The translations under genes were made by a program, and so were the position numbers. This document shows positions 1 through 25,803 of a stretch of 34,327 nt of DNA, in pieces. Numbering within the stretch: the first letter of the stretch is position 1; every line of letters begins with the position of its first letter. Source of the stretch: an uncultured Candidatus Saccharibacteria bacterium (lineage in GTDB: Bacteria; Patescibacteriota; Minisyncoccia; Phycocordibacterales; PALSA-1337); assembly GCA_964441635.1 (NCBI GenBank), contig CAYTUZ010000001.1:1-34327 (forward strand), written 5' to 3'. Under the pieces are notes generated by a model, which saw only the letters and a program-made list of their open reading frames with translations, ran no database searches and was not told the DNA's origin.

Positions 1-2
1 AC

Positions 3-257
3 AATTTTACGGCTCTTGAATTGGAATACTGCTTTTCTTACAAAGATCCGCGATCGCATCTCGCTGGAATTTTTGCCGCCAAAGAAGCGGTATTCAAGTC
101 CTTGAATAAGACTAATATTCTGTTTTCTTCCATAGAGATTTTAAAGTCAAAAAAAAGCGGTCTCGAGGTTCGGGTCAATGCTAAATTACAAAAAAATATC
201 TTGGTTTCAATAAGCCATACCGAGAAAACGGCCTTCGCTATAGCTATATGCCAATAA
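3..257 (+). CDS. acpS: holo-[acyl-carrier-protein] synthase (4'-phosphopantetheinyl transferase), C-terminal part; 5' end lies outside the window
   Basis: The frame is open from the window edge. The sequence FTALELEYCFSYKDPRSHLAGIFAAKEAVFKSL resembles the AcpS-family core. Its stop overlaps the next start (ATGCCAATAA). Confidence 0.7.
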   Translation, partial: NFTALELEYCFSYKDPRSHLAGIFAAKEAVFKSLNKTNILFSSIEILKSKKSGLEVRVNAKLQKNILVSISHTEKTAFAIAICQ

Positions 258-1309
258 AATACAAAAAATGCGTAGTTCTAGATCTAGACAATACCTTGTG
301 GGGTGGCGTTGTCGGCGAAGAAGGTCTCGAGGGCATCAAACTCGCTCTCACCGAACCCGGTTCATATTTTATTGCTTTTCAACAAGCGCTTTTGGATCTG
401 AGCAATAAAGGAGTAGTTTTGGCGATTAATAGCAAAAATAATCCGAATGATGCTCTGGAAGTTATTCGAAAGCACAAGAATATGATTCTCAAGGAACATC
501 ATTTTTCGGCGATGCGGATCAATTGGCAAGACAAGCCGGTGAATATGCTGGAACTCGCCAAAGAAATCAATATCGGACTCGATACAATGGTTTTCTTGGA
601 CGATGATCCTATGCAAAGAGCGGCCATGAAGTCGTCCTTGCCGGAAGTCGAAGTTCCGACAATGCCGGCTGATCCCGCAGACTACGCCAAATTCCTGCTC
701 TCCTTGCCTTATTTTCCGAAAGACGCGACCACTGATGAAGACAAAATGCGCACAAATATGTATGTGACCGAGAGATTGCGCTCCGAAGCGCAAAAACAAT
801 TTTCCAATATGGAGGATTTTTTTCGCACTCTGCGTTTGGAAATGCGGATCAAGGTGAATGATCGGGCAAGTTTGGCTCGTCTGGCGCAACTTTCCGAAAA
901 AACCAACCAATTCAATGTCTACAAACGGCCCATGGATATTGGCGAACTCGAAAGGCTTATGAATAATCCCGAATATATGGTAGTGTGCGGGAGTGTCATG
1001 GATCGATTTGGCGACTATGGCATAACAAATATGGCAGTTGTCCATGCCCAAAAAACAATTTGGGAAATCGAAAGTTATCTAATGAGTTGTCGAGTGATGG
1101 GTCGCGGCATCGAAACGGCATTTCTCAAATTTATCGACAAACTGGCGGAAAAGAACGATATGCAATCGCTCATGATCCGCTTTGAGAAAACTGAAAAGAA
1201 CAAACCCGCGGAAGATTTTATTAATAAACATTTTCGAGAATTTAATATCAAGCCGGGCGCCATAGTAGCGCCTGACTGGATAACCATAAAACATGAGAAC
1301 ATTCAATGA
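248..1309 (+). CDS. FkbH-like HAD-IIIC phosphatase/acyl-loading protein
   Basis: N-terminal HAD motif VVLDLDNTLWGG. C-terminal LMSCRVMGRGIE cysteine motif, as I recall for FkbH-family glyceryl-ACP loaders. Overlaps both neighbouring genes. Confidence 0.8.
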   Translation: MPIKYKKCVVLDLDNTLWGGVVGEEGLEGIKLALTEPGSYFIAFQQALLDLSNKGVVLAINSKNNPNDALEVIRKHKNMILKEHHFSAMRINWQDKPVNMLELAKEINIGLDTMVFLDDDPMQRAAMKSSLPEVEVPTMPADPADYAKFLLSLPYFPKDATTDEDKMRTNMYVTERLRSEAQKQFSNMEDFFRTLRLEMRIKVNDRASLARLAQLSEKTNQFNVYKRPMDIGELERLMNNPEYMVVCGSVMDRFGDYGITNMAVVHAQKTIWEIESYLMSCRVMGRGIETAFLKFIDKLAEKNDMQSLMIRFEKTEKNKPAEDFINKHFREFNIKPGAIVAPDWITIKHENIQ

Positions 1310-1523
1310 CATTGCGGCCAAAATATTTAGCATCAAGTCAGAGCAGATCCGAGACACTTTCACAGCCAAAGACATACCCGGCTGGGACTCCATGAATTAT
1401 TTGCTTTTTATCGCGGAATTGGAAAAAGAATATAATGTTAGTTTTACTATGGATGAAGTCCTAAATGCTGTTTCACTGGGCTCGATAAGAGCGATGCTCG
1501 TCGCCAAGGGTGCAAAAATATGA
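1293..1523 (+). CDS. acyl carrier protein (stand-alone)
   Basis: 76 aa. GWDSMNYLLFIAELE is a helix-II motif with the Ser phosphopantetheine attachment site. The start lies inside the fkbH-like 3' end. Confidence 0.85.
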   Translation: MRTFNDIAAKIFSIKSEQIRDTFTAKDIPGWDSMNYLLFIAELEKEYNVSFTMDEVLNAVSLGSIRAMLVAKGAKI

Positions 1524-1939
1524 AGAGCCTAGACAAAGAATTTGGAGATATCAAAGTTAGCGATTGTGCATCTTTCGAGCGTACGATTTCTACAGAAGAC
1601 ATGAATGCTTTTGCGCAATTGAGCGGTGATTATAACCCTCTGCACCTTGAAGAGGATTATGCGGCAAAAACCGAACTGAAAGGAACTGTGGTTTACGGAA
1701 TGCTTTTGGCGGCTTTGGTATCTAGGTTGGTCGGTATGGATTTGCCGGGCAAAAGAGCTTTACTGCTTACGGAAAGTTTGGAATTCAAAAAACCGGCACG
1801 AGTAGGAGACTTGATCATTGTAGAAGGAATCGTTCGCCATAAAAGCTTATCAACACGGATTTTGGAGCTAGACATCAGCATAAAAAGATCAGCAGAATTA
1901 TTAGCTATCGGAAGCGTGTCAGTCAAAGTATTGCCATGA
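1520..1939 (+). CDS. MaoC-like (R)-hydratase/dehydratase, hot-dog fold
   Basis: 139 aa. SGDYNPLHLEEDYA is the MaoC-family signature. ATGA overlaps on both sides. Confidence 0.8.
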   Translation: MKSLDKEFGDIKVSDCASFERTISTEDMNAFAQLSGDYNPLHLEEDYAAKTELKGTVVYGMLLAALVSRLVGMDLPGKRALLLTESLEFKKPARVGDLIIVEGIVRHKSLSTRILELDISIKRSAELLAIGSVSVKVLP

Positions 1940-2610
1940 AAAATAAAATTGTTGTAATTTCCGGCGGATCTGGTTATCTTGGTCGTCATATAGTTTCTAA
2001 ACTTCTCAATCGAGGTTTTATCGTTTTTTCTATTAATAGAAAAATGCCTCCAGAAGAGCGGGTTCCAAAAGATAAAAATTTACATTTTTTTTCAGCAGAC
2101 GTCTCCGATGGAAAGGCGCTAAAGAAAATATCCGAAGTGGCGAAAAAGATTGGTAAAATTCGAGCGGTTATTCACGCAGCATCGGCGCCTCTAGTGCGTC
2201 GGCCGATACTCGAAAATACTATGGAGGAATTTCGCAGCCAATTTTTCACAAATGTCTTTGGTTGCTATGAATTGGCCAAATGCTTTTGTCCGCTTATGGA
2301 AGCTGGTAGTGTTGTAATAGCGATAACTTCGGATGTGACGAAAAGTGGAAGGCCGTATTTTGTCGGTGGTTCTTATGTCCCAGCCAAGGTCGCCTTGGAT
2401 TCCTTGATGAAAATTATCTCGCATGAATTGGAGACAAAGCATATCAGAACCTGTATTGTCTCGCCGGCTTTCATGCCGGGCGGTTTGAATAGCGATATGC
2501 CGGAAGCAGTTAGAGAATTTATTATGAGCAAAAGTAAGCCAGAAGAGATATCAGATCCAGAAAAAGTTGCCACCGAAGTCGTGGAGCTTGTTTGCATGAC
2601 CAACCGATAA
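1936..2610 (+). CDS. short-chain dehydrogenase/reductase (putative ketoreductase)
   Basis: VVISGGSGYLGRHI Rossmann glycine motif. SYVPAK is a YxxxK catalytic motif. Confidence 0.8.
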   Translation: MKNKIVVISGGSGYLGRHIVSKLLNRGFIVFSINRKMPPEERVPKDKNLHFFSADVSDGKALKKISEVAKKIGKIRAVIHAASAPLVRRPILENTMEEFRSQFFTNVFGCYELAKCFCPLMEAGSVVIAITSDVTKSGRPYFVGGSYVPAKVALDSLMKIISHELETKHIRTCIVSPAFMPGGLNSDMPEAVREFIMSKSKPEEISDPEKVATEVVELVCMTNR

Positions 2611-2611
2611 T

Positions 2612-4060
2612 ATGCTTTTCAATTCTGTTTCATTCTTACTTTTCTTTCCGATTGTCGTCATTATCTATTACGCGCTGCCGCACAAGATGCGACCGCTTTT
2701 TTTGCTGATTGCCAGCTCCTATTTTTACATGTGCTACGTGCCAAAATACATTTTGATTTTGTTTTTTTTGATCACGCTGGATTATATTCTCGGCCGAGCA
2801 ATTCAAGGAAGTACGGGAAGGAGCAGAAAATGGTTATTGATTGTCAGTATTCTTTCCAACCTAGGTACACTTTTTGTTTTCAAATACTTGAACTTTTTCA
2901 ATGAAAATATTGCCGCATTAGCACATTTGCTAAATTGGCAATATTCCTTTGCGCTTCTTCGGGTGGCATTGCCCTTGGGCCTTTCATTCCATGTCTTTCA
3001 GAGCCTAAGTTATGTGATCGAAGTCTATAAAGGGCGGTACAAAGCCGAAATGAATTATATTCATTACGCGCTCTATGTGATGTTTTTCCCACAGCTGGTA
3101 GCCGGTCCCATAGAACGACCGCAAAACCTTTTGCCGCAAATCAACACCTTGCGAGATTTCGATTTCTCGAGAATGAAAAGAGGCCTAGAAAGAATGCTTT
3201 GGGGCTTTTTCAAAAAACTAGTGATTGCGGATCAGATTTCGGTAATCGTAGACAGATTATTTTCGCATTTGCCCAGCGATTCATTCTCGCTTGTGTTCCT
3301 TTCGGTATTATTTACTTACCAATTGTATTGTGATTTTTCTGGCTATTCGGATATAGCGATCGGCTCAGCCAATGTTCTCGGCTTCGATCTGGTGGAAAAT
3401 TTCAACCGGCCCTTTGCCGCAATAAGTGTCGCGGATTTTTGGCGTCGCTGGCATATTTCGCTATCGAGTTGGTTGCGCGATTACCTTTACTATCCGCTGG
3501 CTTTCTCTTGGGGCAAGGTTTCCAAATATCGGCTTTACGTGAGCCTTTTCATAACCTTCACACTTATCGGCCTTTGGCATGGCGCTCGCATGACATTTGT
3601 AGTCATGGGTGCTTTGCACGGAATGTATTTGGTGGTTGGCTCGATGACAGAACGATTCCGTGACAAATTTGCGGTATTCATACGCCTCAGTGTCTTTCCA
3701 AGAATGAGAAGCGTGCTAAAAATCTTGACGGTGTTTTCTCTGGTGACCATCAGCTTTATTTTCTTCCGAGCAGAAAGTGTCAGTCAAGCTTTATGGATCA
3801 TTGGGCATATATTTACCGGCGGATATATGGGACTCAAATCTCTGCAAGGATTGGGATTGGTGAATGACGGTCGCTTGATGATATTTCCGGCCATCATATT
3901 CATGGAAGTTGTCCAATATGTCATGGTCAAAAAAGGCACATTTTATATTTTTGAAGATAAGCCCAAAATATTCCGCTATGCTTGGCGTTATGCTCTTATA
4001 TTCATCCTGCTTTGGTTCGGATCGGGGGCGGAGCAAGCTTTCATTTATTTTCAATTTTGA
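2612..4060 (+). CDS. MBOAT family membrane-bound O-acyltransferase (DltB/AlgI/PatA-like)
   Basis: Polytopic hydrophobic protein. Carries the FWRRWHISLSSWLRDYLYYPL signature with the invariant His. Starts 1 nt after the SDR stop. Confidence 0.9.
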   Translation: MLFNSVSFLLFFPIVVIIYYALPHKMRPLFLLIASSYFYMCYVPKYILILFFLITLDYILGRAIQGSTGRSRKWLLIVSILSNLGTLFVFKYLNFFNENIAALAHLLNWQYSFALLRVALPLGLSFHVFQSLSYVIEVYKGRYKAEMNYIHYALYVMFFPQLVAGPIERPQNLLPQINTLRDFDFSRMKRGLERMLWGFFKKLVIADQISVIVDRLFSHLPSDSFSLVFLSVLFTYQLYCDFSGYSDIAIGSANVLGFDLVENFNRPFAAISVADFWRRWHISLSSWLRDYLYYPLAFSWGKVSKYRLYVSLFITFTLIGLWHGARMTFVVMGALHGMYLVVGSMTERFRDKFAVFIRLSVFPRMRSVLKILTVFSLVTISFIFFRAESVSQALWIIGHIFTGGYMGLKSLQGLGLVNDGRLMIFPAIIFMEVVQYVMVKKGTFYIFEDKPKIFRYAWRYALIFILLWFGSGAEQAFIYFQF

Positions 4061-4077
4061 TTCTATACCAAAATTTC

Positions 4078-5208
4078 ATGGCAAAATCTCTTCTAAAAAT
4101 ATTCTTTTTTTCTCTGCCGGTAATTCTAGTGCTCTTGTTGCCGGCAGTGATAATCTTTTTCTGTCGAGAATATTATTCCGTGGATGACATACTTTATGCG
4201 CAAAGAAAAGATCCTAGTGTATTGTACAATACTTGTTGTTCAAATCTGCGGGCGCCTTATAAAAAGGCGCTGGTTTTGGAAAAAAATCCAGAAATCATCA
4301 CTTTGGGCACGTCGCGTGTCCTTGAATTTCGCCAAGAATTCTTCCGCGATCCCGCGATTTTCGCGAATGCTGGCCAAGCGATTGTGAATATAAATGATCT
4401 TCCGGAATTCATGGCCAAACTGCCAGAAAAGCGCAAACTAAAAGTGATATTGCTCGGCCTCGATCACCAAATGTTCACGCCGGGATATGCTACGCAAGAT
4501 ACGACTAGTTTTATGCCCGAAAGTGTCGTGGAAAGATTCGGTACTGTTCTTGGTGGCAATTGGAAGCGAATCTATACGTACATGTTTCAAGGCAAAGTAC
4601 CGGCGGATATTATTGTGCGCTCATTTCGAAGTGACAATGTTGGCATGGCCGCTCTCACAAATGGATCTGGTTTTCGCGCTGACGGGAGCTATAACTACGG
4701 TGATTCGCTCGAAGAGCGTGATCAGCACTTCTCATCTTCGACAGATCTCTCGAATATGCTTGCTTCGCTTTCGAGTGATCGCGAAGCTTTTTTGTATGGC
4801 ACTCGGATTTCCGGTGAAGCAGTCAACAATCTGAAGCAGTTTTTGGATATGGCAAAGAAAAGGAATATTGTCGTCATCGGCTTTCTGCCGCCATATCCGC
4901 AAGGCATTTACAGGAAAATGTTAAGCGTGCCTGATGCTTATGCGAAGATGGTTACGCAATTGCCAGCGACACTCACAAATATTTTCGCGGCATACGGTGA
5001 CCAATTTTATGATTATTCTGACGATAGTGTCATAGGCGCAGGTCAAAATGAATACGTCGATCCTTTCCATGGCACCGACAAATTGTCTTTGCGGGTGCTT
5101 ATTGATATTGCCAAAAAGCAAAAGAAGCAAATTGGGCAATATGTCGATATTATTGGTCTCGAAAAACTTCTAGTGGCGAATTCAAAAAATCATTTAACAG
5201 ATTTATGA
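4078..5208 (+). CDS. DltD-like / SGNH-fold membrane-anchored acyl-transfer accessory protein
   Basis: Start chosen at the ATG 17 nt after the MBOAT stop. N-terminal TM helix LLKIFFFSLPVILVLLLPAVIIFF. ITLGTSRV is a Ser block and VDPFHG is DxxH-like. Its position after an MBOAT matches dltB-dltD. Confidence 0.6.
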   Translation: MAKSLLKIFFFSLPVILVLLLPAVIIFFCREYYSVDDILYAQRKDPSVLYNTCCSNLRAPYKKALVLEKNPEIITLGTSRVLEFRQEFFRDPAIFANAGQAIVNINDLPEFMAKLPEKRKLKVILLGLDHQMFTPGYATQDTTSFMPESVVERFGTVLGGNWKRIYTYMFQGKVPADIIVRSFRSDNVGMAALTNGSGFRADGSYNYGDSLEERDQHFSSSTDLSNMLASLSSDREAFLYGTRISGEAVNNLKQFLDMAKKRNIVVIGFLPPYPQGIYRKMLSVPDAYAKMVTQLPATLTNIFAAYGDQFYDYSDDSVIGAGQNEYVDPFHGTDKLSLRVLIDIAKKQKKQIGQYVDIIGLEKLLVANSKNHLTDL

Positions 5209-6266
5209 TGCATGCCCGCCTTCGCGATTTTGGCAAAGTTTCTAACCGCCTTGGCGATTTCATCTTTGATGAATTTTACATTGCTATATTCCGAAGGATA
5301 GCCGACCAATTCCATAAAGCCGACACCGTTTATCTTTTTGCCGCCGAAAGTGCCTTCTGCCCGGATCGGCCCCTCAAAATAGTTGATTGAACCGAAAAGC
5401 ATTTCTTGATCTTCATTTTGGGCTACGATATTCACGTCGATATTCTTGTCTGGAATTTTGATTTGCCAGACCAGAGGGTAAACCGCTTTGCTTTTTGGGC
5501 TTTGCCAGTTTTTGTCCAGAGGAGTGATCTCTACTGCTTCAGTATATTCTTGGCGATTATCAGAATAAGAAATGCTGGCAAAACAAGTTGCAGTTTTACC
5601 GTCGTCATACGCGCAACAAACTATTTCTGTGTCGTTTTCGAATTGCAAGCAAAACCAATCCCACCTATCTCGCGAATATTCCGCATCCGCCCATTGGTGG
5701 TCCATCCATGACTTTCCGGTAATATTGACCCATTCACCGCTTATTTTTATACGGCCTTCGGTTTTGAGATTGGTTAGAGAATAGTAATAAGTCGTTTTGG
5801 GATGGAGATCGAGATAAGCGTTGCCGCCTACAAGCAGAGGTTTCTTGGTGGAGGTCAAATGCAATTCGATATCCTCATTTTTGATCTCATATTCCGACTC
5901 ATTTATTTTGCTGATGACGCAGTTGTTGTAACCGTTTTTAATTTCCGGATTAATATAATTGATATATAGAAGAGGCTTGGAAAAACTATCATCGGAAACG
6001 ATCGAAAAAGGCGCAATCCGGCTCTGCCATTGTTTTTTCTCTAGGTTTGAAACCAGCGAATGAGAAAAATAAGAGGTTTTGAGAGGTATTTTGCTTAGGA
6101 AAGGTATTTTTACTTTTTTTACGTCGACCTTGAATAGGCAGTCCATGAAAGAATATTCCTTGCCGTTTGCATCATGGAGGTGGCCGTTAAAATACCACCA
6201 TTCAACTATGGCATCATGCGTCGATTCATCTTCCGGAAATTTGATGGGCTTAAATTCTGGAGGCAT
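5190..6266 (-). CDS. AttH/CrtC-like lipocalin-fold protein (hydroxyneurosporene-synthase family)
   Basis: N-terminal EDESTHDAIVEWWYFNGHL signature. The 3' end overlaps the convergent DltD-like gene by 19 nt. Confidence 0.65.
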   Translation of the reverse strand: MPPEFKPIKFPEDESTHDAIVEWWYFNGHLHDANGKEYSFMDCLFKVDVKKVKIPFLSKIPLKTSYFSHSLVSNLEKKQWQSRIAPFSIVSDDSFSKPLLYINYINPEIKNGYNNCVISKINESEYEIKNEDIELHLTSTKKPLLVGGNAYLDLHPKTTYYYSLTNLKTEGRIKISGEWVNITGKSWMDHQWADAEYSRDRWDWFCLQFENDTEIVCCAYDDGKTATCFASISYSDNRQEYTEAVEITPLDKNWQSPKSKAVYPLVWQIKIPDKNIDVNIVAQNEDQEMLFGSINYFEGPIRAEGTFGGKKINGVGFMELVGYPSEYSNVKFIKDEIAKAVRNFAKIAKAGMHHKSVK

Positions 6267-6277
6267 ATAATGATATT

Positions 6278-7279
6278 TTAATTCACGCTAGATTCTTGAT
6301 GTCTCAATTTGTAATTTTCATGATAGCTGACGATGACGGGAATGCTGGCTGCGACTGGTAGGGCTAGGAATGCTCCGAGGATGCCAAATAAACTGGCACC
6401 TAGGATAACTGCGAGAAAGCCTAGTGCCGGGTAGAGATTGAGAGCTTTGTTGTAGATCGCGGGACTGATGAAGGCGTTCTCTATTTGTTGGTAGATAAGA
6501 TGCAAAATAAGCACCGAAAAGCCTTGTATAGGTGAAAGGCTAAAGGCTACCAGTAGAGCGGGAATGGCACCCAAGGTCGAACCGACCAATGGTAGAAGGT
6601 CGAAAATGCCAGCAAAAAGAGCTAGAGGCAAAGCAAAAGGAATACCAAAGGCCCAAAGTCCGATAAAGATCACCAGAAAAGTGATGAAAGAAATGATCAC
6701 ATTGCCGCGGATGTATTGACCAGTGACTCGCGATATTTCTTCTAGGAAACCTCTTAATTTGGCTTTTTCTTTGTATGGAAAAATGGAGAGAAAGAGTTTG
6801 AGCAGGCGTTCGTAATCGTAGACAAAATAAAATGTCAGTATGATCGTGGAAATGACAGAGAAAACTGTTAGTATAATATTGCCCGAAGAAGCCAGAATGT
6901 CGCTCGAATGGGATTGCACATACTCTACAATACTAAAATTATTGAAAAGATGTCCGAAGTAAGGCATATTATTTACGGTCGTATCAATACTTGCCAATAA
7001 TTGTGGAAGTTGGGTGTTGATATTGGGTACGATAGTAAAACCAATTATGAGAAAAGGGATGAGAAGTATGATAAAAATTATGAAGGTGCAAAGCAAGACA
7101 GGCAGTTTTGTTCTTGCGTGCAGGGAATGAACGAGTGGGTGCAGTGAGGCAGTGAGAACCATGGCAATGACGATATCGACGACAGCGCCGAGTGATTTCC
7201 AGACAAGGAGTAAAATGACGCCTGTGAGGACGATTCTAGTCAATGCAGCCCAGCTAAATGGGTGTTCGTGTGGTTCCAT
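6278..7279 (-). CDS. AI-2E family transporter (PerM/UPF0118)
   Basis: 333 aa, about 8 hydrophobic segments, with typical family layout and C-terminal GAFLALPVAA region. TATACT lies 6 nt upstream of the ATG. Confidence 0.75.
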   Translation of the reverse strand: MEPHEHPFSWAALTRIVLTGVILLLVWKSLGAVVDIVIAMVLTASLHPLVHSLHARTKLPVLLCTFIIFIILLIPFLIIGFTIVPNINTQLPQLLASIDTTVNNMPYFGHLFNNFSIVEYVQSHSSDILASSGNIILTVFSVISTIILTFYFVYDYERLLKLFLSIFPYKEKAKLRGFLEEISRVTGQYIRGNVIISFITFLVIFIGLWAFGIPFALPLALFAGIFDLLPLVGSTLGAIPALLVAFSLSPIQGFSVLILHLIYQQIENAFISPAIYNKALNLYPALGFLAVILGASLFGILGAFLALPVAASIPVIVSYHENYKLRHQESSVN

Positions 7280-7917: not shown

Positions 7918-8790
7918 CTATTTGTTATTGGGAAGGTACTTCTCGAAGTCCCATGGAAAGATGCCCTCCTTACCCTTCTCGATCAGACCTTGCATGAGCT
8001 TGGCACGGTCGTCTCCTTCGATATCCGCGGCATTAATGAGTACGAACGACGCAGCGGAACCGTATCCGAAAAATAGGTCGAAGAAGAAGGCGTACAGCCG
8101 ATCCGAATGAAGTGTCAGTGAGATCTGTCCCTGCGCAAACTCTTTGAAGTTCGCTCTGGCCCTATATCTGTTCTCCCGCCACTTGCATTGCTCACGGCAC
8201 ATGTGGCTATCCTCGCAGGCCGCGATAAGTTCGCAGAATGCGAGATCCCATCGCTTGGGACTATTCTTCTCGAAGTAGTCTGTCAGCTTGTCGAAGATGA
8301 CGCCGTCGTACTCGACTGCTTCCAGTACCTTGTAGGGGTTTTGGAAGTTGCCATGATAGGCCGCCTTCATGATCGTACTTACGATGACAAAGTCGTATTG
8401 AACCTGTTTGACGATCTCGCGAATGTCCTCTTCAGCCCAAAAGGTTTTGTCACCCTTATAGCCGGGAGGATGTGGCGACAATGTATCATCGTGTAGTTCC
8501 TCACCTGATTCAATTTTGCAGTGGAGATCGATCCACCGAAACAAAAGTTCTTCGGGCTTAGGTTTCTCTACTTCTGGTTGACTTGCCACCTGTTCCTCTT
8601 GCGGAGGTTCAGGTGTTATCTGACGTCGGCGAACCGTACGTTTTTTCGATTTCATACTGATACTTTTAGGCGTATGGTCTGGAACGCCAGGGCTTCCTTT
8701 CAAAAAGCCACTGTCCATCTTATTTAAAGAACTGAAACTCTCAGGGTCACAACTTTTGTTATGAGCCCAGTTGAGTCCGCCTGACTTCAT
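7918..8790 (-). CDS. hypothetical protein (basic, Pro/Glu-rich N-terminal region plus an approximately 200-aa globular C-terminal region)
   Basis: 290-aa ORF with no internal stops. No motif I can assign. Lies 21 nt downstream of the preceding small gene. Confidence 0.6.
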   Translation of the reverse strand: MKSGGLNWAHNKSCDPESFSSLNKMDSGFLKGSPGVPDHTPKSISMKSKKRTVRRRQITPEPPQEEQVASQPEVEKPKPEELLFRWIDLHCKIESGEELHDDTLSPHPPGYKGDKTFWAEEDIREIVKQVQYDFVIVSTIMKAAYHGNFQNPYKVLEAVEYDGVIFDKLTDYFEKNSPKRWDLAFCELIAACEDSHMCREQCKWRENRYRARANFKEFAQGQISLTLHSDRLYAFFFDLFFGYGSAASFVLINAADIEGDDRAKLMQGLIEKGKEGIFPWDFEKYLPNNK

Positions 8791-14033: not shown

Positions 14034-15356
14034 TTAATCACTAAAAACTTCGATTTTGGCGCCGAGTTTATTTAGCCTCGCCGCCAGATCTTCATAGCCA
14101 CGGTTGATATTGTAAACATTGCGTAAGATCGAAGTCCCCGTCGCGGCCAGCATGCCGAGGAGGATGATGACCGACGGGCGCAAAGCTGGCGGGCAGATGA
14201 TTTCGGCAGCCTTGAAATGAGTTGGACCTTTGACATAAAAACGAAAAGGATCGGCCAGAATGGTTTCGGCGCCGAGCTTGTCCAACTCTTTGTAATAAAT
14301 TGCGCGTTCCTCGTAGCTCCAGTCGTGGATGTATGTCTGGCCTGTCGCAACCGCGCCGATCAGCGCGAAGAAAGGCAAATTGTCCATGTTTATTCCCGGA
14401 AAAGGCATGGCGTGGATTTTTTCTTCGAGTGCTACTAGCTTTGACGGAAAAGTTTTGATGTCAACAAGGTTCGTATAGCCATTCAAAGCTTTGTAGCTTT
14501 TCAAAATCTCATATTTGAAACCCATCTTTTCTAGTTTCAAAAGTTCCAATTCTAGGAAATCGATCGGACAGCGATCTATCGTAACTGAAGAATTGGTGAC
14601 GATTGCCGCGGCGATGAGTGACATGGCTTCGATCGGGTCTTCGCTCAAAAAATATTCCACATCCTTATCAATTTCTTTTTTACCATGAATGGTAAGCGTG
14701 GACTGTCCGATGCCTTCTATCTTGACACCGAGTTTTTCCAAGTAGAAGCAAACATCCTGCACCTGATAATTGGCTGAAGCAAACTTCACCACCGTTGTGC
14801 CCGGAATTCTGGCTGCGGCCATGATCACGGTTTCGGTTACGGTATCGCCAGCTTCATAAAGAACTATATTTTTCGCTTTCAGTCCAGAATGTTTGATTTC
14901 ATAAAAATCCGATTCGGTTTTGATAGTGACACCGAGCTTTTCGAGAGCATAAAAATACGGCTTCACCGTGCGCGAACCGAGTCGGCAACCGCCAGCTTGG
15001 GGGATTTTGAAGTCTTTATATTCGTGAATGATTGCGCCGATGAGCATTATTGCACTAAGAGTTTTTGCATCGGAATCATAGTCGATTTTTTCTATGGCGA
15101 GTTTTTTGGGCGGCGTAATAACGAGATCATTGCCTTGCCAGTTGATCCCGACGCCAATGCTTTCCAGTGCCTCGCTGATCCGGTAAACCTCCTCGATTTT
15201 CGGCGCATTCTTGATCGTGGTTTTGCCTTTGTTGAGTAGTGATGCACACATTACGCCGACCGCGCCATTTTTCGAGGTGCGCACGGTGATTTCGCCGGAA
15301 AGCTTGTGGCCACCTTCAATGCGAAAATTTATAGCAGTCGGTTTTTTGGGTTGCAT
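14034..15356 (-). CDS. murA: UDP-N-acetylglucosamine 1-carboxyvinyltransferase
   Basis: FRIEGGHKLSGEITV N-terminus. Active-site loop GGCRLGSRTV. Start set at the ATG at 15356 (441 aa), because the longer ORF runs antisense into mreB. Confidence 0.9.
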   Translation of the reverse strand: MQPKKPTAINFRIEGGHKLSGEITVRTSKNGAVGVMCASLLNKGKTTIKNAPKIEEVYRISEALESIGVGINWQGNDLVITPPKKLAIEKIDYDSDAKTLSAIMLIGAIIHEYKDFKIPQAGGCRLGSRTVKPYFYALEKLGVTIKTESDFYEIKHSGLKAKNIVLYEAGDTVTETVIMAAARIPGTTVVKFASANYQVQDVCFYLEKLGVKIEGIGQSTLTIHGKKEIDKDVEYFLSEDPIEAMSLIAAAIVTNSSVTIDRCPIDFLELELLKLEKMGFKYEILKSYKALNGYTNLVDIKTFPSKLVALEEKIHAMPFPGINMDNLPFFALIGAVATGQTYIHDWSYEERAIYYKELDKLGAETILADPFRFYVKGPTHFKAAEIICPPALRPSVIILLGMLAATGTSILRNVYNINRGYEDLAARLNKLGAKIEVFSD

Positions 15357-15405
15357 GGGATATTTATAGCATGAATAATAATGGTGTGCTATATTCGCAC
15401 TACTT

Positions 15406-16419
15406 ATGAGCATCTTTTTTCCCAAACTTGGCATCGATCTTGGCACTGCCAACACTTTGGTATTCGTACCCGGCAAAGGCATAGTCTTGAATGAACCGTC
15501 GGTAGTTGCCATTTCCGAAGTTGACCGCAAAGTCATGGCCGTAGGCGTCGACGCCAAAGAAATGGTCGGCCGCACGCCAGATACCATCATTGCTTATCGG
15601 CCGATGAAGGACGGTGTCATTGCTGATTATCGCATCACCGAAGCCATGTTGCGTTATTTCATCGACAAAGCACTTGGCCGGTTCAACCTCTTCAAGCCTG
15701 ATGTCATGGTTTCTGTCCCTGCGGGCATTACTTCGACCGAACGTCGCGCGGTGATCGAAGCCGCGCTCAGAGCTGGCGCGCGCAATGCTTATGTTGTCAA
15801 AGAGCCAATCTTGGCCGCTATCGGCGCCGGCATTCCCATTCATGAAGCTCGTGGACACATGGTCGCCGATATAGGTGGTGGCACGACCGACGTCGCGGTT
15901 ATTTCCTTGGGCGGTATCGTCGCTTCGACTTCGGTCAAGTGCGCTGGCAACAAAATCGATGCCGCCATTGCTGACTACATCAAAAAAACTTTCAATCTCG
16001 GCATTGGCGATCATATGGCCGAGAATATCAAGATCGCCATCGGCTCGGCTATTCCGCTCGAACAGGAACTGGCCATGAATGTCAAAGGCCGCGATTTTAT
16101 TACCGGCTTGCCGCGCTCGACCGAAGTCAAAACCAATGAAATCGTCAAGGCGTTGGCCGGGCCGCTTCGCGACATGGTAAAAGCGATGCGTGATGTCTTA
16201 CAAGAGACACCACCGGAATTGGCCGCGGATATTATCGACCAAGGCATTACTTTGACCGGCGGCTCTTCTTTGCTTCGCAATCTTGCTGAACTTGTATATC
16301 GTCGCACTGGCGTCAAGGCGCAAGTTGCCGAAGAACCATTACTTTGCGTGGCGAAGGGAACAGGCATTGCATTGGAGCACCTCGATACATATAAGAAGAC
16401 GATTATTTCGAAGAGGTAA
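15406..16419 (+). CDS. mreB: rod shape-determining protein MreB (paralogue 1)
   Basis: Actin-fold motifs GIDLGTANT, DIGGGTTDVAV and LTGGSSLLRNL. Confidence 0.9.
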   Translation: MSIFFPKLGIDLGTANTLVFVPGKGIVLNEPSVVAISEVDRKVMAVGVDAKEMVGRTPDTIIAYRPMKDGVIADYRITEAMLRYFIDKALGRFNLFKPDVMVSVPAGITSTERRAVIEAALRAGARNAYVVKEPILAAIGAGIPIHEARGHMVADIGGGTTDVAVISLGGIVASTSVKCAGNKIDAAIADYIKKTFNLGIGDHMAENIKIAIGSAIPLEQELAMNVKGRDFITGLPRSTEVKTNEIVKALAGPLRDMVKAMRDVLQETPPELAADIIDQGITLTGGSSLLRNLAELVYRRTGVKAQVAEEPLLCVAKGTGIALEHLDTYKKTIISKR

Positions 16420-20806: not shown

Positions 20807-21862
20807 ATGTTCAGAGAGAAAAAAGAGCAACTACTTTCGCGATTTTCGAACGATATTGGCATTGATCTCGGCACGGCCAACACTCTCGTCTATGTCCGCG
20901 GCAAAGGTATCGTAGTGAACGAGCCGTCGGTCGTTGCTGTGAACCAGAAGACTGGCCAAGTCGTCGCTTTTGGTTCTGCTGCCAAGGAAATGCTCGGCCG
21001 CACGCCCATGCACATAGTAGCTGTCCGCCCTTTGGTCGATGGTGTGATTTCCGACTTTGAAGTGACCGAAGAAATGCTTACTTATCTCATGAAGAAGGCT
21101 AGCGAATTTATGCCCAAAAAACTTTTCGGGCCGCGAGTGGTTGTGGGCGTACCCTCGGGGGTAACCAATGTCGAAGTTCGCGCCGTCCGCGATGCGACCA
21201 AAAACGCCGGCGCTCGCGAGGTTTACGTCATCGAACAACCCATGGCTGGCGCGATCGGTATCCGATTGCCGATCCATGAACCTGTAGGCAGTATGGTCAT
21301 CGATATCGGCGGTGGCACGACTGACATCGCAGTGATTTCATTGGGTGGCATTGTCCGCTCCAAGAATTTGAAAATTGCTGGAGACAAATTTAATAATGAC
21401 ATCATTTCTTATATCAGGAATGAATTCAAAATCCTGATCGGAGAAACTACAGCAGAACAAGTCAAGATAGCAGTTGGCGTGGTTCTTCCGAGCGAGCCGG
21501 TCGAGACCACCATTCGCGGCCGCGATCTCATCACTGGTTTGCCGCGCGAGGTTGTCATAACCGATTCTGATATCCGCGAAGCTATGGCGCAGTCGATCGA
21601 GACTATAGTCGAGTCCACGCGTTTGGTCTTGGAAACAACACCGCCGGAAATTCTGGCCGATATCATGAAGCGTGGTATTTTTCTAGTCGGCGGCGGTGCT
21701 CTCATAAAAGGCTTGGATACGCTCCTTATTGAGACCTTGAATATTCCGGTCGCGGTCGCCGATGATCCGCTGACAGCCATTGCTCGCGGTGCTGGCATCG
21801 TGCTCGAAGATCTAGACAAATACCGGAGCGTGCTCCTAGACAGCGATGATGTACATAGTTAA
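20807..21862 (+). CDS. mreB: rod shape-determining protein MreB (paralogue 2, in the mreBCD-PBP2 operon)
   Basis: GIDLGTANT, DIGGGTTDIAV and LVGGGALIKGL motifs. Confidence 0.92.
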   Translation: MFREKKEQLLSRFSNDIGIDLGTANTLVYVRGKGIVVNEPSVVAVNQKTGQVVAFGSAAKEMLGRTPMHIVAVRPLVDGVISDFEVTEEMLTYLMKKASEFMPKKLFGPRVVVGVPSGVTNVEVRAVRDATKNAGAREVYVIEQPMAGAIGIRLPIHEPVGSMVIDIGGGTTDIAVISLGGIVRSKNLKIAGDKFNNDIISYIRNEFKILIGETTAEQVKIAVGVVLPSEPVETTIRGRDLITGLPREVVITDSDIREAMAQSIETIVESTRLVLETTPPEILADIMKRGIFLVGGGALIKGLDTLLIETLNIPVAVADDPLTAIARGAGIVLEDLDKYRSVLLDSDDVHS

Positions 21863-22688
21863 ATCTCAAAACTCAAGTTTCAAATCTAAAAAAGGAGGCG
21901 TAATTTTTGTAATCATAATTTTTGCAGTAGTTGCTACCCTCGAGGCTTTTTGGCCGCATTTTTTGCCAGCCTTGGCGACAAGCATAGCGAGTCCATTTTG
22001 GCGTGCGGAATTTTCGATTGAAAGCGGATCGCTCGAGTCGCCGCAACAATTACTCGCGGAAAATGAAAGTTTGAAGCGCCAAATTGATCAATTAAAATTA
22101 AATTCAGCAGACATACAAGCGGTGGTCTTGGAAAATACGGAGCTGAAGTCGCTTTTGGGCAGGAATGTTCCGGACGAGATCGCTTCATCGTCGAGTTCGA
22201 CGAATGCTATCACACAAAATTCTATTGCGAAAAATCGCGTCCTCGCTCCAGTCTTGATTCGGCCACCGTTTGCGCCTTATGACGAATACATTATCGACGG
22301 CGGTGCGAACTTGGGCTTTTCTATAGGTGATCGTGTCTTTGCTTCGGAAAATGTTCCGATCGGCTCGATCGCGGCCGTACTTGCCAATACTTCCAGAGTG
22401 ACTTTGTATTCTTCACCCGGCCAGTCGTACCAAGTTTTGGTTGGTCCAGCTAGTATTATTGCTACGGCACTCGGCCGTGGTGGCGGACAATATTCTGCCG
22501 AAGTTCCGCGGTCGGCCAATATCACAAGTGGCGACTTCGTAATCGCACCTTCATTGTACGACCAACCATTTGGCATCGTGAAAGCAGTAATAAGCGATCC
22601 TTCGCAACCTTTTCAGACAGTGCTATTTGCGCCACCGGTGAACCCGTTCCAAGCTCGCTGGGTTTTGGTTGAGAAAACAAAGATCTAA
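21846..22688 (+). CDS. mreC: rod shape-determining protein MreC
   Basis: N-terminal TM helix, a coiled coil (LLAENESLKRQIDQLK), then a beta-rich domain. Positioned after mreB. Confidence 0.8.
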   Translation: MMYIVKSQNSSFKSKKGGVIFVIIIFAVVATLEAFWPHFLPALATSIASPFWRAEFSIESGSLESPQQLLAENESLKRQIDQLKLNSADIQAVVLENTELKSLLGRNVPDEIASSSSSTNAITQNSIAKNRVLAPVLIRPPFAPYDEYIIDGGANLGFSIGDRVFASENVPIGSIAAVLANTSRVTLYSSPGQSYQVLVGPASIIATALGRGGGQYSAEVPRSANITSGDFVIAPSLYDQPFGIVKAVISDPSQPFQTVLFAPPVNPFQARWVLVEKTKI

Positions 22689-22696
22689 TTGATCAA

Positions 22697-22963
22697 ATGA
22701 ATAAATCCATATATTACAGAATCACTTTGGACTTGGCGATTTTCTTTGCAGTTATTCACGGCTTTTGGTTTTTGGCTTTCCCAATCGCATTTGTCGGTGT
22801 TTTTGTATTTCCATACTATTTCGAACTGTTTGTTGCCGGCTTGGCGTACGACGCGCTATTTGGCATGAGCAAATCTCTTGGAATTGTGAGTTATGTCGGC
22901 ACGATCGCATCAGGCGCACTATTTCTAATCGTTCAATTTTTCAAAAACATAGTTAGGCATTGA
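22697..22963 (+). CDS. mreD: short MreD-like membrane protein
   Basis: 88 aa with 3 hydrophobic helices. Called mainly from its position between mreC and PBP2. Confidence 0.5.
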   Translation: MNKSIYYRITLDLAIFFAVIHGFWFLAFPIAFVGVFVFPYYFELFVAGLAYDALFGMSKSLGIVSYVGTIASGALFLIVQFFKNIVRH

Positions 22964-24705
22964 GTGCTGTGATACAATTCCCGCGTATGAATATTCCGTT
23001 TTTCAATATTAAAAAGAAAAAATACATCGAGATTAACCCCGATGAAATCTTGTTGGACTCTCGCAACTTGCCGGAATTCGACACGGCCCAATTTGAAGGC
23101 CGGTTGGAAAAACCGATTTCCATGGCGTCGATTTATTGGATCACTGTAATTTTGACTGTTATTGTCGTGGCATTTACTGTGCAAGTCTGGAAGCTTCAGA
23201 TCGTCGATGGTGCGAATTATCTCGCGCGCAGCGAAAAAAATATGTTGCGGCCAGTGCCGATCTTTGCTGGCAGGGGCGTGATCTATGATCGCAATGGAAT
23301 ACTTTTGGTTTGGAATTCGCCGGGCGAGTTTGCAACTTCGACGGCTAGTTCCACAAATTCCGAAGATACGGTTTCACGCCGCGAATATGCGACGACGACA
23401 GGTCTTGCGCATGTTTTGGGCTATGTTCAATATCCGTCAAAAGATAACAATGGTTTTTATTATCAAGAAGATTTTCAAGGTGTTGATGGTGTGGAGCAAT
23501 ATTACAATCTAGATTTGCAAGGCAAGAATGGTTCTAGACTGGTCGAAGTAGATGCGCAGGGAAAAGCGGTTTCCGAAAATGTTATTCGTCCGCCGGAACA
23601 AGGAGATAGTTTGTCACTTTCCATAGATAGCCGCATCCAATCTTCGCTGTACAATAATATAAAAGATATTGCCGAAAGAGTCGGCTTCTCCGGCGGCGCA
23701 GGTGTCATTATGGACGTGCACACTGGTGAAGTTATCGCCATGACCAGCTATCCAGAATTTAGCTCGCAGGTAATGTCTGACAGGACCGATACAGCTGCAG
23801 TCAAAGCTTCGCTCAATGATCCTGCTTTGCCTTTTCTCGATCGTGCCGCAGACGGCCTCTATACGCCGGGTTCGATCGTAAAACCCTATCTAGCCCTCGG
23901 CGCACTCACCGAAGGCACAATGGATCCGAACAAGATCATTCACACTACTGGTTCGATTTCCATTCCCAATCCTTACGATCCAACCAAGAGTACAGTTTTT
24001 CGCGATTGGAAAAATTTGGGCGATCTCGACTTGCGCCATGCCATAGCGATGTCTTCTGACGCCTATTTTTATACTTTGGGCGGCGGTTATGGCGACCAAA
24101 AGGGTTTGGGCATCGCTAATATCGACAAATATTTGCGCATGTTCGGCTTTGGTTCATCAACTCTACCTTCGTTTGTTGCAGGAAAGGCCGGCACTATTCC
24201 CACGCCGGAATGGAAAAAGAAAACCTTCAATGAAAGCTGGTATTTGGGCGATACTTACCACACTTCGATCGGCCAATATGGCTTCCAAGTGACGCCGGTC
24301 CAAATCGTGCGCGGCGTTGCTGCGATTGCAAACGGCGGAACCTTGCTCACGCCTTCGATCTTGAAAGATGAAATGCTGCCGATCGATCACGTTATCGATA
24401 TTCCAGAGAAAAATTTTGAAATTGTCCGCGAAGGTATGCGACTAGGCGTACAGATCGGCACTAGTGTGGCCTTGAATGTTCCTTATGCCGATTTTGCGGG
24501 GAAGTCGGGAACTGCGGAACTGGGTGTCTCGAAAGAAAAAGTAAATTCTTGGATCACGGGTTTTTGGCCTTACGAGAATCCGAAATACGCTTTTGCAGTG
24601 ACTCTAGAAAAAGGTTCGGTGCACAACCTGATCGGCGCGGCTGCGGCAATGCGGCAGGAGCTAGATTGGATGAGCAAGAATACGCCGGAGTATTTTAGTA
24701 AATAA
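22960..24705 (+). CDS. mrdA: penicillin-binding protein 2 (elongation transpeptidase)
   Basis: SIVK (SxxK), SSD (SxN-like) and KSGTAE (KTG-like) motifs, plus an N-terminal TM anchor. The start is either the TTG at 22960 overlapping the mreD stop, or the ATG at 22987. Confidence 0.88.
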   Translation: MSAVIQFPRMNIPFFNIKKKKYIEINPDEILLDSRNLPEFDTAQFEGRLEKPISMASIYWITVILTVIVVAFTVQVWKLQIVDGANYLARSEKNMLRPVPIFAGRGVIYDRNGILLVWNSPGEFATSTASSTNSEDTVSRREYATTTGLAHVLGYVQYPSKDNNGFYYQEDFQGVDGVEQYYNLDLQGKNGSRLVEVDAQGKAVSENVIRPPEQGDSLSLSIDSRIQSSLYNNIKDIAERVGFSGGAGVIMDVHTGEVIAMTSYPEFSSQVMSDRTDTAAVKASLNDPALPFLDRAADGLYTPGSIVKPYLALGALTEGTMDPNKIIHTTGSISIPNPYDPTKSTVFRDWKNLGDLDLRHAIAMSSDAYFYTLGGGYGDQKGLGIANIDKYLRMFGFGSSTLPSFVAGKAGTIPTPEWKKKTFNESWYLGDTYHTSIGQYGFQVTPVQIVRGVAAIANGGTLLTPSILKDEMLPIDHVIDIPEKNFEIVREGMRLGVQIGTSVALNVPYADFAGKSGTAELGVSKEKVNSWITGFWPYENPKYAFAVTLEKGSVHNLIGAAAAMRQELDWMSKNTPEYFSK

Positions 24706-25202: not shown

Positions 25203-25772
25203 ATGTTCGAAACTTACAAGAAAAAAATCCTAGATTTCTATAAAGACCACAAGCGCATGCCCGGTTATGCCGAGATCATGAAGCTGGTCGGATTCAAGTC
25301 CAAGAATGCTGTCGCCAAGCTTATAAAGAAACTTGTCGAGCAAGGTTTCGTAAACAAAGATTCCCAAGGCAAACTCATTCCCAACAAATTATTCGGCGAA
25401 GTTCCATTACTCGGTCTGGTCGAAGCGGGTTTTCCTTCTGCGGCAGAGGAGGAATTAGTGGATACCATGAGTCTGGATGATTACCTTATTGAGAATAAAG
25501 AAGCGACCTATTTGCTAGAAGTAAAAGGCGATTCGATGATAGATGCCGGCATCCAAGAAGGTGACTTGGTCATCGCCGAACGCATCGCTCGCGATCCCAA
25601 GGTGGGCGAGATCGTGATTGCCGAGGTCGACGGCGGCTGGACCATGAAGTATTTCCGGAAGCGCGGCAGTCAGGTCTATCTGGAGCCGGCGAATAAGAAT
25701 TACGACCTGATCTATCCCGAAAATGAACTCAAGGTCGCGGCGGTGGTTAAGGGGGTGGTGAGGAAGTATTAA
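25203..25772 (+). CDS. lexA: LexA repressor (S24 peptidase)
   Basis: N-terminal winged-helix region. Cleavage-site region LVEAGFPSAAEE. Catalytic GDSM and a Lys in WTMKYF. Confidence 0.9.
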   Translation: MFETYKKKILDFYKDHKRMPGYAEIMKLVGFKSKNAVAKLIKKLVEQGFVNKDSQGKLIPNKLFGEVPLLGLVEAGFPSAAEEELVDTMSLDDYLIENKEATYLLEVKGDSMIDAGIQEGDLVIAERIARDPKVGEIVIAEVDGGWTMKYFRKRGSQVYLEPANKNYDLIYPENELKVAAVVKGVVRKY

Positions 25773-25803
25773 AATATTAACCCACCACTCTTTCCCTCGC
25801 GCC

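Follow-up and report, generated by a model that had tools for sequence, protein, structure and literature searches.

Which acyl donor serves a membrane-bound O-acyltransferase (MBOAT) whose gene stands, with that of a DltD-like partner, at the end of an operon that also encodes an acyl carrier protein (ACP) and enzymes to prime and load it? The question is raised by positions 1-5208 of a stretch of DNA from an uncultured Candidatus Saccharibacteria bacterium of the Patescibacteriota (contig CAYTUZ010000001.1 of assembly GCA_964441635.1, positions 1 to 34,327 of the forward strand); the whole stretch of 34,327 nucleotides (nt) is called the window below. MBOAT-SGNH pairs are a general bacterial route to esters of envelope polymers, and these esters govern resistance to lysozyme, cationic peptides and phages. 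In the current division of such systems, Dlt has a carrier protein and a separate DltX, whereas all the others use acyl-CoA and have a fused tyrosine motif, so that Dlt is treated as the sole carrier-protein-dependent MBOAT-SGNH pathway (PMC12148441). The operon described here breaks that division, as its fused-motif MBOAT is accompanied by a dedicated carrier protein, an enzyme to prime it and others to build the acyl group. We consider it probable that the operon forms a complete O-acylation system, dependent on a carrier protein, for an extracytoplasmic polymer of the envelope. We also lean, if only slightly, towards the broader view that it belongs to a second widespread class of carrier-protein-dependent MBOAT-SGNH acylation, found in Patescibacteria and uncultured marine bacteria, in which FkbH, a dedicated ACP and a dehydratase, joined in some members by a reductase, would turn the glycolytic intermediate 1,3-bisphosphoglycerate into esters (lactyl, pyruvoyl or glyceryl) of surface glycopolymers.

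Full-text literature searches found no description of an MBOAT system fed by FkbH and an ACP, and the papers that mention both FkbH and MBOAT concern unrelated cyanobacterial peptide clusters (including PMC13122637). All the parts are of known kinds, and their combination is new, recurrent and directly testable. If the reading is correct, fused-motif MBOATs, now thought to use acyl-CoA only, can use acyl-ACP donors, and an undescribed cell-envelope ester is predicted that is neither acetyl nor aminoacyl and is probably lactyl. It would also open a first functional way into the chemistry of the patescibacterial surface, through a compact system of seven proteins that could be reconstituted directly. 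Patescibacteria are largely without fatty-acid synthesis and would therefore otherwise have no need for an ACP.

Organization of the operon

The seven genes are co-directional on the + strand and overlap or abut almost without intergenic DNA, as read from the junction sequences. The first, truncated at the window edge, is a C-terminal fragment of a dedicated holo-ACP synthase, AcpS (84 codons, 3-257), which overlaps by 10 nt the gene of an FkbH-like protein of 353 amino acids (aa; 248-1309). The ACP gene (76 aa, 1293-1523) overlaps the latter by 17 nt and is followed, each time through an ATGA overlap with the preceding gene, by the genes of a MaoC dehydratase (1520-1939) and of a short-chain dehydrogenase/reductase of the ketoreductase (KR) kind (SDR, 224 aa; 1936-2610). 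After a 1-nt gap comes the MBOAT gene (482 aa, 2612-4060) and, after a gap of 17 nt, that of a membrane-anchored partner with a predicted DltD-like SGNH fold (376 aa, 4078-5208). A mechanical list of open reading frames (ORFs) places the start of this last gene at a TTG at 3982, but gene calls on sister contigs and the homologue alignment favour the ATG at 4078 that had been proposed in the preliminary description of this DNA. Translational coupling extends across all junctions of the operon. The remaining ORFs of the operon were likewise found where that description had placed them, each of the motifs that it quoted (DLDNT, SCRVMGRG, DSM, GGSGYLG, YVPAK, WHISLS, LGTS and DPFHG) is present, and profile searches agree with its family names for six of the genes (ACPS, FkbH, PP-binding, MaoC, SDR and MBOAT).

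By exact-sequence look-up, the operon was also recovered from six other metagenome contigs. On the sister contig, L001 (related contigs and loci are designated by L numbers), AcpS is full-length (120 aa) and is again the first gene, its upstream neighbour being divergently transcribed. A promoter and terminator scan of the L001 operon returned nothing informative.

The acyl-building cassette

The AcpS fragment matches Pfam ACPS with 36.4 bits and TIGR00556 with 45.2 bits, and AcpS would prime the 76-aa ACP. The ACP itself scores 22.5 bits against PP-binding (cut-off 20.8), and its putative phosphopantetheine serine, located in WDSM (nt 1386-1394), is conserved in 74 of 74 cassette ACPs. Its best matches in the PDB are generic or putative ACPs, not DltC.

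The assignment of the 353-aa protein to the FkbH family, with the catalytic Asp and the putative catalytic Cys in place, proved sound. Its score of 305.3 bits against TIGR01686 is about twice the cut-off of 146.65 and covers model positions 3-319 of 323; against the HAD-IIIC model TIGR01681 it reaches 74.8 bits (cut-off 35.75). The DLDNT motif is encoded at nt 281-295 and the SCR cysteine, C281, within nt 1085-1108. Residues D12, D14, T16, S62, K96, D118, D119 and C281 are invariant in an alignment of 24 sequences, and among 87 relatives neither the HAD aspartates (DxD) nor the SCR cysteine varies, both motifs being 100% conserved. C281, in the C-terminal domain, would hold the acyl-S-enzyme intermediate, as a putative counterpart of the cysteine mapped experimentally in OzmB. 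An AlphaFold2 model (predicted local distance difference test, pLDDT, 88.2) has a HAD phosphatase domain followed by a GNAT-like transferase domain. When this model was compared with solved structures using Foldseek, the N-terminal half resembled BF1531 (3slr, the best PDB match), MDP-1 and KdsC, and the C-terminal half resembled the GNAT folds of PaiA and GCN5. We take the protein to be a stand-alone loader of the FkbH family, for which glyceryl loading is predicted from family membership and conserved residues. Loading of a glyceryl group from 1,3-bisphosphoglycerate is established FkbH chemistry, and the enzyme would transfer this group onto the ACP.

The next two genes encode enzymes that could remodel the loaded unit. 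The MaoC protein (MaoC_dehydratas, 62 bits) is of the hot-dog (R)-hydratase/dehydratase type and contains a complete hydratase-2 motif, FAQLSGDYNPLHLEEDYA (core nt 1622-1645), in which 94% of 32 cassette homologues retain the Asp and 100% the His. The SDR (adh_short, 77 bits; KR, 37 bits) has the nucleotide-binding motif SGGSGYLG and the catalytic motif YVPAK (nt 2374-2388), and all 13 homologues retain its YxxxK. Four activities, those of FkbH, carrier, dehydratase and ketoreductase, are thus encoded consecutively with their catalytic motifs intact. In the sequence of steps that we propose, MaoC would dehydrate glyceryl-S-ACP to enol-pyruvoyl/pyruvoyl-S-ACP, and the SDR would reduce pyruvoyl-S-ACP to lactyl-S-ACP.

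The MBOAT and its DltD-like partner

The MBOAT matches the Pfam MBOAT model with 95.8 bits. Its putative catalytic His lies in WHISLS (nt 3449-3466) and is 100% conserved. The last six residues of the protein are FIYFQF (nt 4040-4057), an acyl-shuttle tyrosine motif fused to the MBOAT itself, and all cassette-linked MBOATs, like all of 20 or more related MBOATs, end in F[IF]YF[QKR]F. In an FXYXXF motif of this kind, the tyrosine accepts the acyl group that the MBOAT His delivers and passes it on to the serine of the SGNH partner (PMC12148441), a mechanism shown for Dlt and PatAB. The motif is carried by the separate microprotein DltX in Dlt and is fused to the MBOAT in PatA, AlgI and others, and the fused-motif systems are without a carrier protein and evidently use an acyl-CoA donor (PMC12148441). 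By analogy, the His of the MBOAT studied here would carry the acyl group, taken from the pantetheine thioester, through the membrane to Tyr479 of its own C-terminal FIYFQF, and the DltD-like protein would then take it on Ser79 and esterify a hydroxyl of a surface glycopolymer. This scheme, each chemical step and the acceptor included, we infer from family membership, catalytic residues, fold, synteny and association.

Orthology with Dlt was considered and rejected. The MBOAT scores 163.4 bits against the DltB model TIGR04091, well below the cut-off of 375. Among solved structures it matches best the DltB structures 6BUG and 8JEM (95 bits), it is about 26% identical to the 6BUG segment, and DltB is the outgroup in the MBOAT tree; close homologues of the MBOAT carry the database name AlgI. 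No AMP-binding (DltA-type) enzyme is encoded in the operon or its conserved relatives. Neither is there a DltX in the operon, since no small ORF lies between the genes, whose junctions overlap or leave gaps of 17 nt at most. The MBOAT and its partner are orthologues neither of Dlt nor of a characterised acetyl-CoA system. The architecture of the MBOAT is PatA/AlgI-like and, because it carries a fused FIYFQF and DltX is absent, the operon is Dlt-like in logic only.

The differences from Dlt can be set out as follows. In Dlt, and by our proposal here, a cytoplasmic acyl-S-carrier protein is the donor, and the acyl group is relayed across the membrane by the MBOAT to an FXYXXF tyrosine and then by a membrane-anchored serine enzyme, DltD or its putative counterpart, to the polymer. 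However, Dlt has an adenylating ligase of the DltA type, where we find an FkbH-type phosphatase/transferase that would draw on glycolysis; the acyl group is an amino acid in Dlt and, in our proposal, a three-carbon (C3) hydroxy or oxo acid here; and the tyrosine motif is on the DltX microprotein in Dlt and is fused to the MBOAT here.

No Pfam or NCBIfam model matched the partner protein. Its AlphaFold2 model (pLDDT 90.9; predicted template-modelling score, pTM, 0.90) has an N-terminal membrane anchor formed by helix 2-29, with lysines towards its N-terminal side. In a Foldseek search of the PDB the top six matches were all DltD (6o93, 3bma, 6pfx), with a probability of 0.95-1.00 for five of the six, and below them came GDSL/SGNH esterases. 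A sequence search of the PDB with the partner profile gave nothing meaningful, and the link to DltD comes from the fold search only. The Pfam DltD profile gives no match. The putative triad consists of S79 (LGTSR, nt 4303-4317), D328 and H331 (DPFHG, nt 5059-5073); in the homologue alignment S79 and H331 are invariant and D328 (DPFH, the DxxH block) is nearly so. When compared using hhalign, the partner and the MBOAT-adjacent proteins of a second lineage of loci, described below, matched with 94% probability and with Ser and His aligned, and one of the latter proteins passes the Pfam DltD threshold.

We also observed, in the partner family, an invariant glutamate (E31) directly after the membrane helix and an invariant D202-G203 in an RxDGSY block (RADGSY), residues that might contact the tyrosine motif of the MBOAT or the acceptor. 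The family first appeared to be rare, with 27 matches. This was withdrawn after an exhaustive profile search gave 5,425 cluster representatives at E <= 1e-3 and 1,634 at E <= 1e-30.

Conservation of gene order and association with MaoC

The seven-gene order, whose conservation the preliminary description had left to be seen, recurs elsewhere. The order AcpS-FkbH-ACP-MaoC-SDR-MBOAT-partner is identical in L007, L097, L098, L099 and L100; L096 has the same set and order except that AcpS is shifted downstream, and L013 has the same order without the SDR. Identity to the window proteins is 54-60% for FkbH, 52-65% for the ACP, 42-60% for MaoC, 29-40% for the SDR, 55-61% for the MBOAT and 30-39% for the partner, the SDR being the least conserved component of the operon. 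In these relatives the flanks consist of surface-glycan genes, namely GT-C/PMT_2 and GT2 glycosyltransferases, Wzm/Wzt-type ABC exporters, NeuB/CMP-transferase, Wzy_C and Polysacc_synt. The named close homologues of the FkbH-like protein, the MBOAT and the partner are all from Patescibacteria (Paceibacterota, Parcubacteria, Falkowbacteria and Sungbacteria).

A scan of genome contigs with one protein yielded one short Falkowbacteria contig, L012. For a scan of metagenomes we used the FkbH alignment as seed, the partner alignment being too divergent, and annotated the resulting 80 FkbH loci with our own profiles. Among them was a second lineage with an FkbH of about 585 aa, many of whose loci come from marine samples. 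Here FkbH-ACP-MaoC-AcpS adjoins an MBOAT that ends in FIYF[QKR]F and a DltD-like gene, in varying orders and orientations.

The presence of an MBOAT was found to follow that of MaoC. When we considered the 27 FkbH loci whose flanks both extend for at least 3 kb and counted an MBOAT if it lay within 3 kb, it was present in six of the eight loci with MaoC and in none of the 19 without (Fisher p = 9.5e-5, a value that is only indicative since the sampled loci are phylogenetically non-independent). Over a total of 84 loci (L012-L095, the 80 from the scan and four fetched earlier), MaoC occurs in 13 of the 14 that bear an MBOAT. The preliminary description had proposed that glyceryl- or lactyl-S-ACP is made and ester-linked to an extracytoplasmic polymer through the MBOAT and the DltD-like protein. 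That proposal is supported by the conserved order and by the tracking of MaoC by MBOAT adjacency, along with the FkbH membership of the loader, the lack of orthology with a known system and the upstream sequence considered below.

Several loci showed further variations. A second MBOAT and partner pair stands beside the cassette-linked one at L099:6596-11743, L013:13690-16233 and L022:1254-5867; in L099 it is a tandem MBOAT with a 379-aa protein and in L013 an MBOAT with an AlgX-family protein. Such double loci might reflect one acyl-ACP supply for two acceptors, or may combine an acetyl system with a C3 system. At L008:21-3672 and L009:71-4721, there come after the MBOAT a 127-aa fragment that belongs to the partner family, a 616-aa protein without a Pfam match and then a complete partner gene. 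No FkbH cassette is visible, and the arrangement is a rearranged or decayed variant.

The donor of the MBOAT

The conservation just described can be set against another explanation, namely that the MBOAT and its partner are an ordinary acetyl-CoA O-acetyltransferase pair, of the PatA/PatB or AlgI/AlgJ type, which only happens to lie in the same glycan locus as the cassette. The product of the cassette would then go to an unlinked transferase, for example for the cytoplasmic N-acylation of an amino or nonulosonic sugar. PatA/PatB and AlgI/AlgJ/AlgX share with our operon an MBOAT of about 480 aa with a catalytic His and a fused C-terminal FIYxxF, and an SGNH-type partner immediately downstream. 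The fused FXYXXF architecture has been assigned to acyl-CoA users without carrier proteins (PMC12148441), and close paralogues without an adjacent ACP exist (L010 and the second pairs of L013, L022 and L099). However, the known pairs use acetyl-CoA and no carrier protein (PMC12148441), whereas AcpS, the ACP and the acyl-building cassette are coupled to and co-conserved with the MBOAT here. The operon encodes no acyltransferase other than the MBOAT/partner pair, and its genes are translationally coupled. The order from FkbH to the partner is kept in at least seven other contigs, and the association survives rearrangement in the second lineage. The dependence of MBOAT adjacency on MaoC (6/8 against 0/19) would be unexpected if the genes were only co-resident in a glycan locus. 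We therefore regard an acetyl-CoA pair as unlikely, although it deserves some weight.

Related loci in which the cassette has another neighbour bear on the same point. At L014:7645-12483 and L015:5535-10405, both from Patescibacteria, an AcpS-FkbH-ACP cassette, with or without MaoC/SDR, is found without an MBOAT. It adjoins an acyltransferase of the Antibiotic_NAT family and an aminopeptidase-like protein (DUF4910/DUF2172), and it lies inside NeuB/DegT nonulosonic-acid loci. This coupling to an Antibiotic_NAT-type N-acyltransferase speaks for the acetyl-CoA alternative. The acyltransferase and the DUF4910/DUF2172 protein resemble the arrangement of Cj1295 with Cj1296/7 in Campylobacter, of which Cj1295 has been linked to di-O-methylglyceroyl-pseudaminic acid (PMC3068675), and this points to a sister system for N-acylation. 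Glyceroyl and di-O-methylglyceroyl sugar substituents are known from Tannerella and Campylobacter (PMC5378307, PMC3068675). These N-acyl groups of nonulosonic acids (Pse5Am7Gra in Tannerella and di-O-methylglyceroyl-Pse in Campylobacter) have in common with our proposal that a surface glycan is decorated with a glycerate-derived unit. However, they are added in the cytoplasm to a sugar precursor, whereas the window has no such transferase and an extracytoplasmic route through the MBOAT and the DltD-like protein is proposed. Because the MBOAT-less loci have an Antibiotic_NAT protein beside the cassette, the latter seems always to be paired with some transferase, and it resembles a portable source of glycerate-derived acyl groups that is plugged into different transferases. 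In the window, the sole available transferase is the MBOAT/DltD-like pair.

Several observations nevertheless weigh against transfer from an acyl-ACP to the envelope through this pair. The fused-motif architecture is that of the acetyl-CoA-dependent PatA/AlgI class and not that of DltB with DltX. A separate clade of ACP-adjacent MBOATs would have supported a switch of donor, but they form none and the tree follows lineage. The second MBOAT of L013, with its AlgX-family partner, is 56% identical to that of the window, and MBOAT and partner pairs occur without the cassette in the examined flanks of L008 and L010. The structural match between the partner and DltD is modest (template-modelling score about 0.4, E = 1.4e-3), and the non-independence of the sampled loci also counts here. 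We put forward acyl-ACP as the donor of this MBOAT, and with it the transfer between the two proteins, as an inference.

The identity of the acyl group

FkbH/OzmB-type formation of glyceryl-ACP offers a precedent for the first step, and the FkbH-DH-KR modules (DH, dehydratase) of FR901464 and bryostatin reportedly lead, as proposed or shown, from 1,3-bisphosphoglycerate to lactyl-S-ACP. The operon shares with them an FkbH loader, a carrier protein, a hot-dog dehydratase and an SDR/KR. In those modules these are polyketide synthase (PKS) domains, whereas the window has discrete small proteins, a MaoC-type dehydratase and no downstream ketosynthase (KS), and its apparent acyl consumer is a membrane O-acyltransferase instead of the KS of a modular PKS. 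We tentatively name lactyl as the transferred group, at somewhat less than even confidence because SDR-less versions exist. Indeed, SDR-less versions occur in L013, L050, L056, L062 and L074 (with MaoC in L013, L050, L062 and L074), and lactyl is consequently not the universal product. A further point against our scheme is the type of the dehydratase: the DH shown to act on glyceryl-ACP belongs to the PKS type, whereas the operon has a MaoC protein.

The route from the ACP through the MBOAT and the DltD-like protein to a polymer could hold with an acyl group other than lactyl, such as glyceryl, pyruvoyl or another product if the order or the substrate of MaoC and SDR differs. Apart from the SDR-less operons, this would agree with the low conservation of the SDR and with the glyceroyl-type substituents already mentioned for Tannerella and Campylobacter, as well as with the methyltransferase or glyoxalase-fold protein that adjoins the cassette in L051 and L083. 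However, the window has an intact hydratase-2 motif and an SDR with an intact YxxxK, each translationally coupled to its neighbours, and FkbH followed by DH and KR to lactyl-ACP, as in the FR901464 and bryostatin loading modules, is the only characterised route known with exactly such enzymes. For the operon of the window we thus rate a non-lactyl product on the same route as rather improbable.

The neighbours in these marine-type loci are an S-adenosylmethionine (SAM) methyltransferase in or beside the cassette in L051 and L083 and a glyoxalase-fold protein in L051 (L051:1916-2851, L051:7691-8101 and L083:3394-4329). They hint that the C3 unit may be modified further while on its carrier, for instance by O-methylation.

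FkbH enzymes are best known from PKS pathways, and an MBOAT acylates a glycosylated peptide in the proposal for the suomilide cluster (PMC13122637). It could be imagined on these grounds that the unit on the ACP serves as starter or extender in the synthesis, elsewhere, of a polyketide, tetronate or lipid, and that the MBOAT acylates a small molecule or a lipid. The preliminary description had considered that a PKS or lipid pathway might appear upstream of the truncated AcpS, but the 3.3 kb upstream of AcpS on sister contig L001 contains no PKS, nonribosomal peptide synthetase (NRPS) or KS gene, and none is found in the window or in the related loci examined. The neighbours are consistently genes of glycan synthesis and export, and the partner is, according to its model, a membrane-anchored and extracytoplasmic DltD-like enzyme. 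As no locus examined contains a KS, a PKS or lipid role is very unlikely, to the point that we give it almost no weight. The reading as a PKS/NRPS starter unit was rejected with the absence of KS, PKS and NRPS from every locus examined.

The surrounding window

A gene for a CrtC/AttH-type double-lipocalin protein (358 aa, 5190-6266, - strand) converges on the operon, overlaps its last 19 nt and ends the unit. It is followed by a gene for an AI-2E family transporter (5190-7279 for the two together, - strand). This neighbourhood is specific to the organism of the window, since the relatives have glycan-gene flanks instead. The rest of the window consists of housekeeping genes, which indicates a chromosomal locus of a peptidoglycan-bearing bacterium. 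They encode Fmt, Def, a PriA-like protein, MurA, two MreB, MreC, PBP2, ribosome recycling factor (RRF) and RseP, and further prolyl-tRNA synthetase (ProRS), LexA, DinB, GreA, a class II aminoacyl-tRNA synthetase, ClpB, Alr and tRNA-Tyr. From MreB, MreC, PBP2, MurA and Alr it follows that the organism has peptidoglycan synthesis and a rod-shape system.

The two MreB paralogues score about 447 bits each (15406-16419 and within 20807-24705), and the second is followed by MreC and a PBP2-type transpeptidase. The MurA-like ORF (14034-15590, - strand) is 518 aa long and its EPSP_synthase domain begins at residue 92, so that there is either an N-terminal extension or a mechanical start codon too far upstream. 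A candidate ORF of 290 aa (7918-8790, - strand) has no Pfam match and a G+C content of 0.49, against about 0.42 in the adjacent stretches. Finally, the LexA gene lies about 140 nt upstream of a gene for a DinB/IMS-family polymerase (25203-27075), the two forming a compact SOS module.

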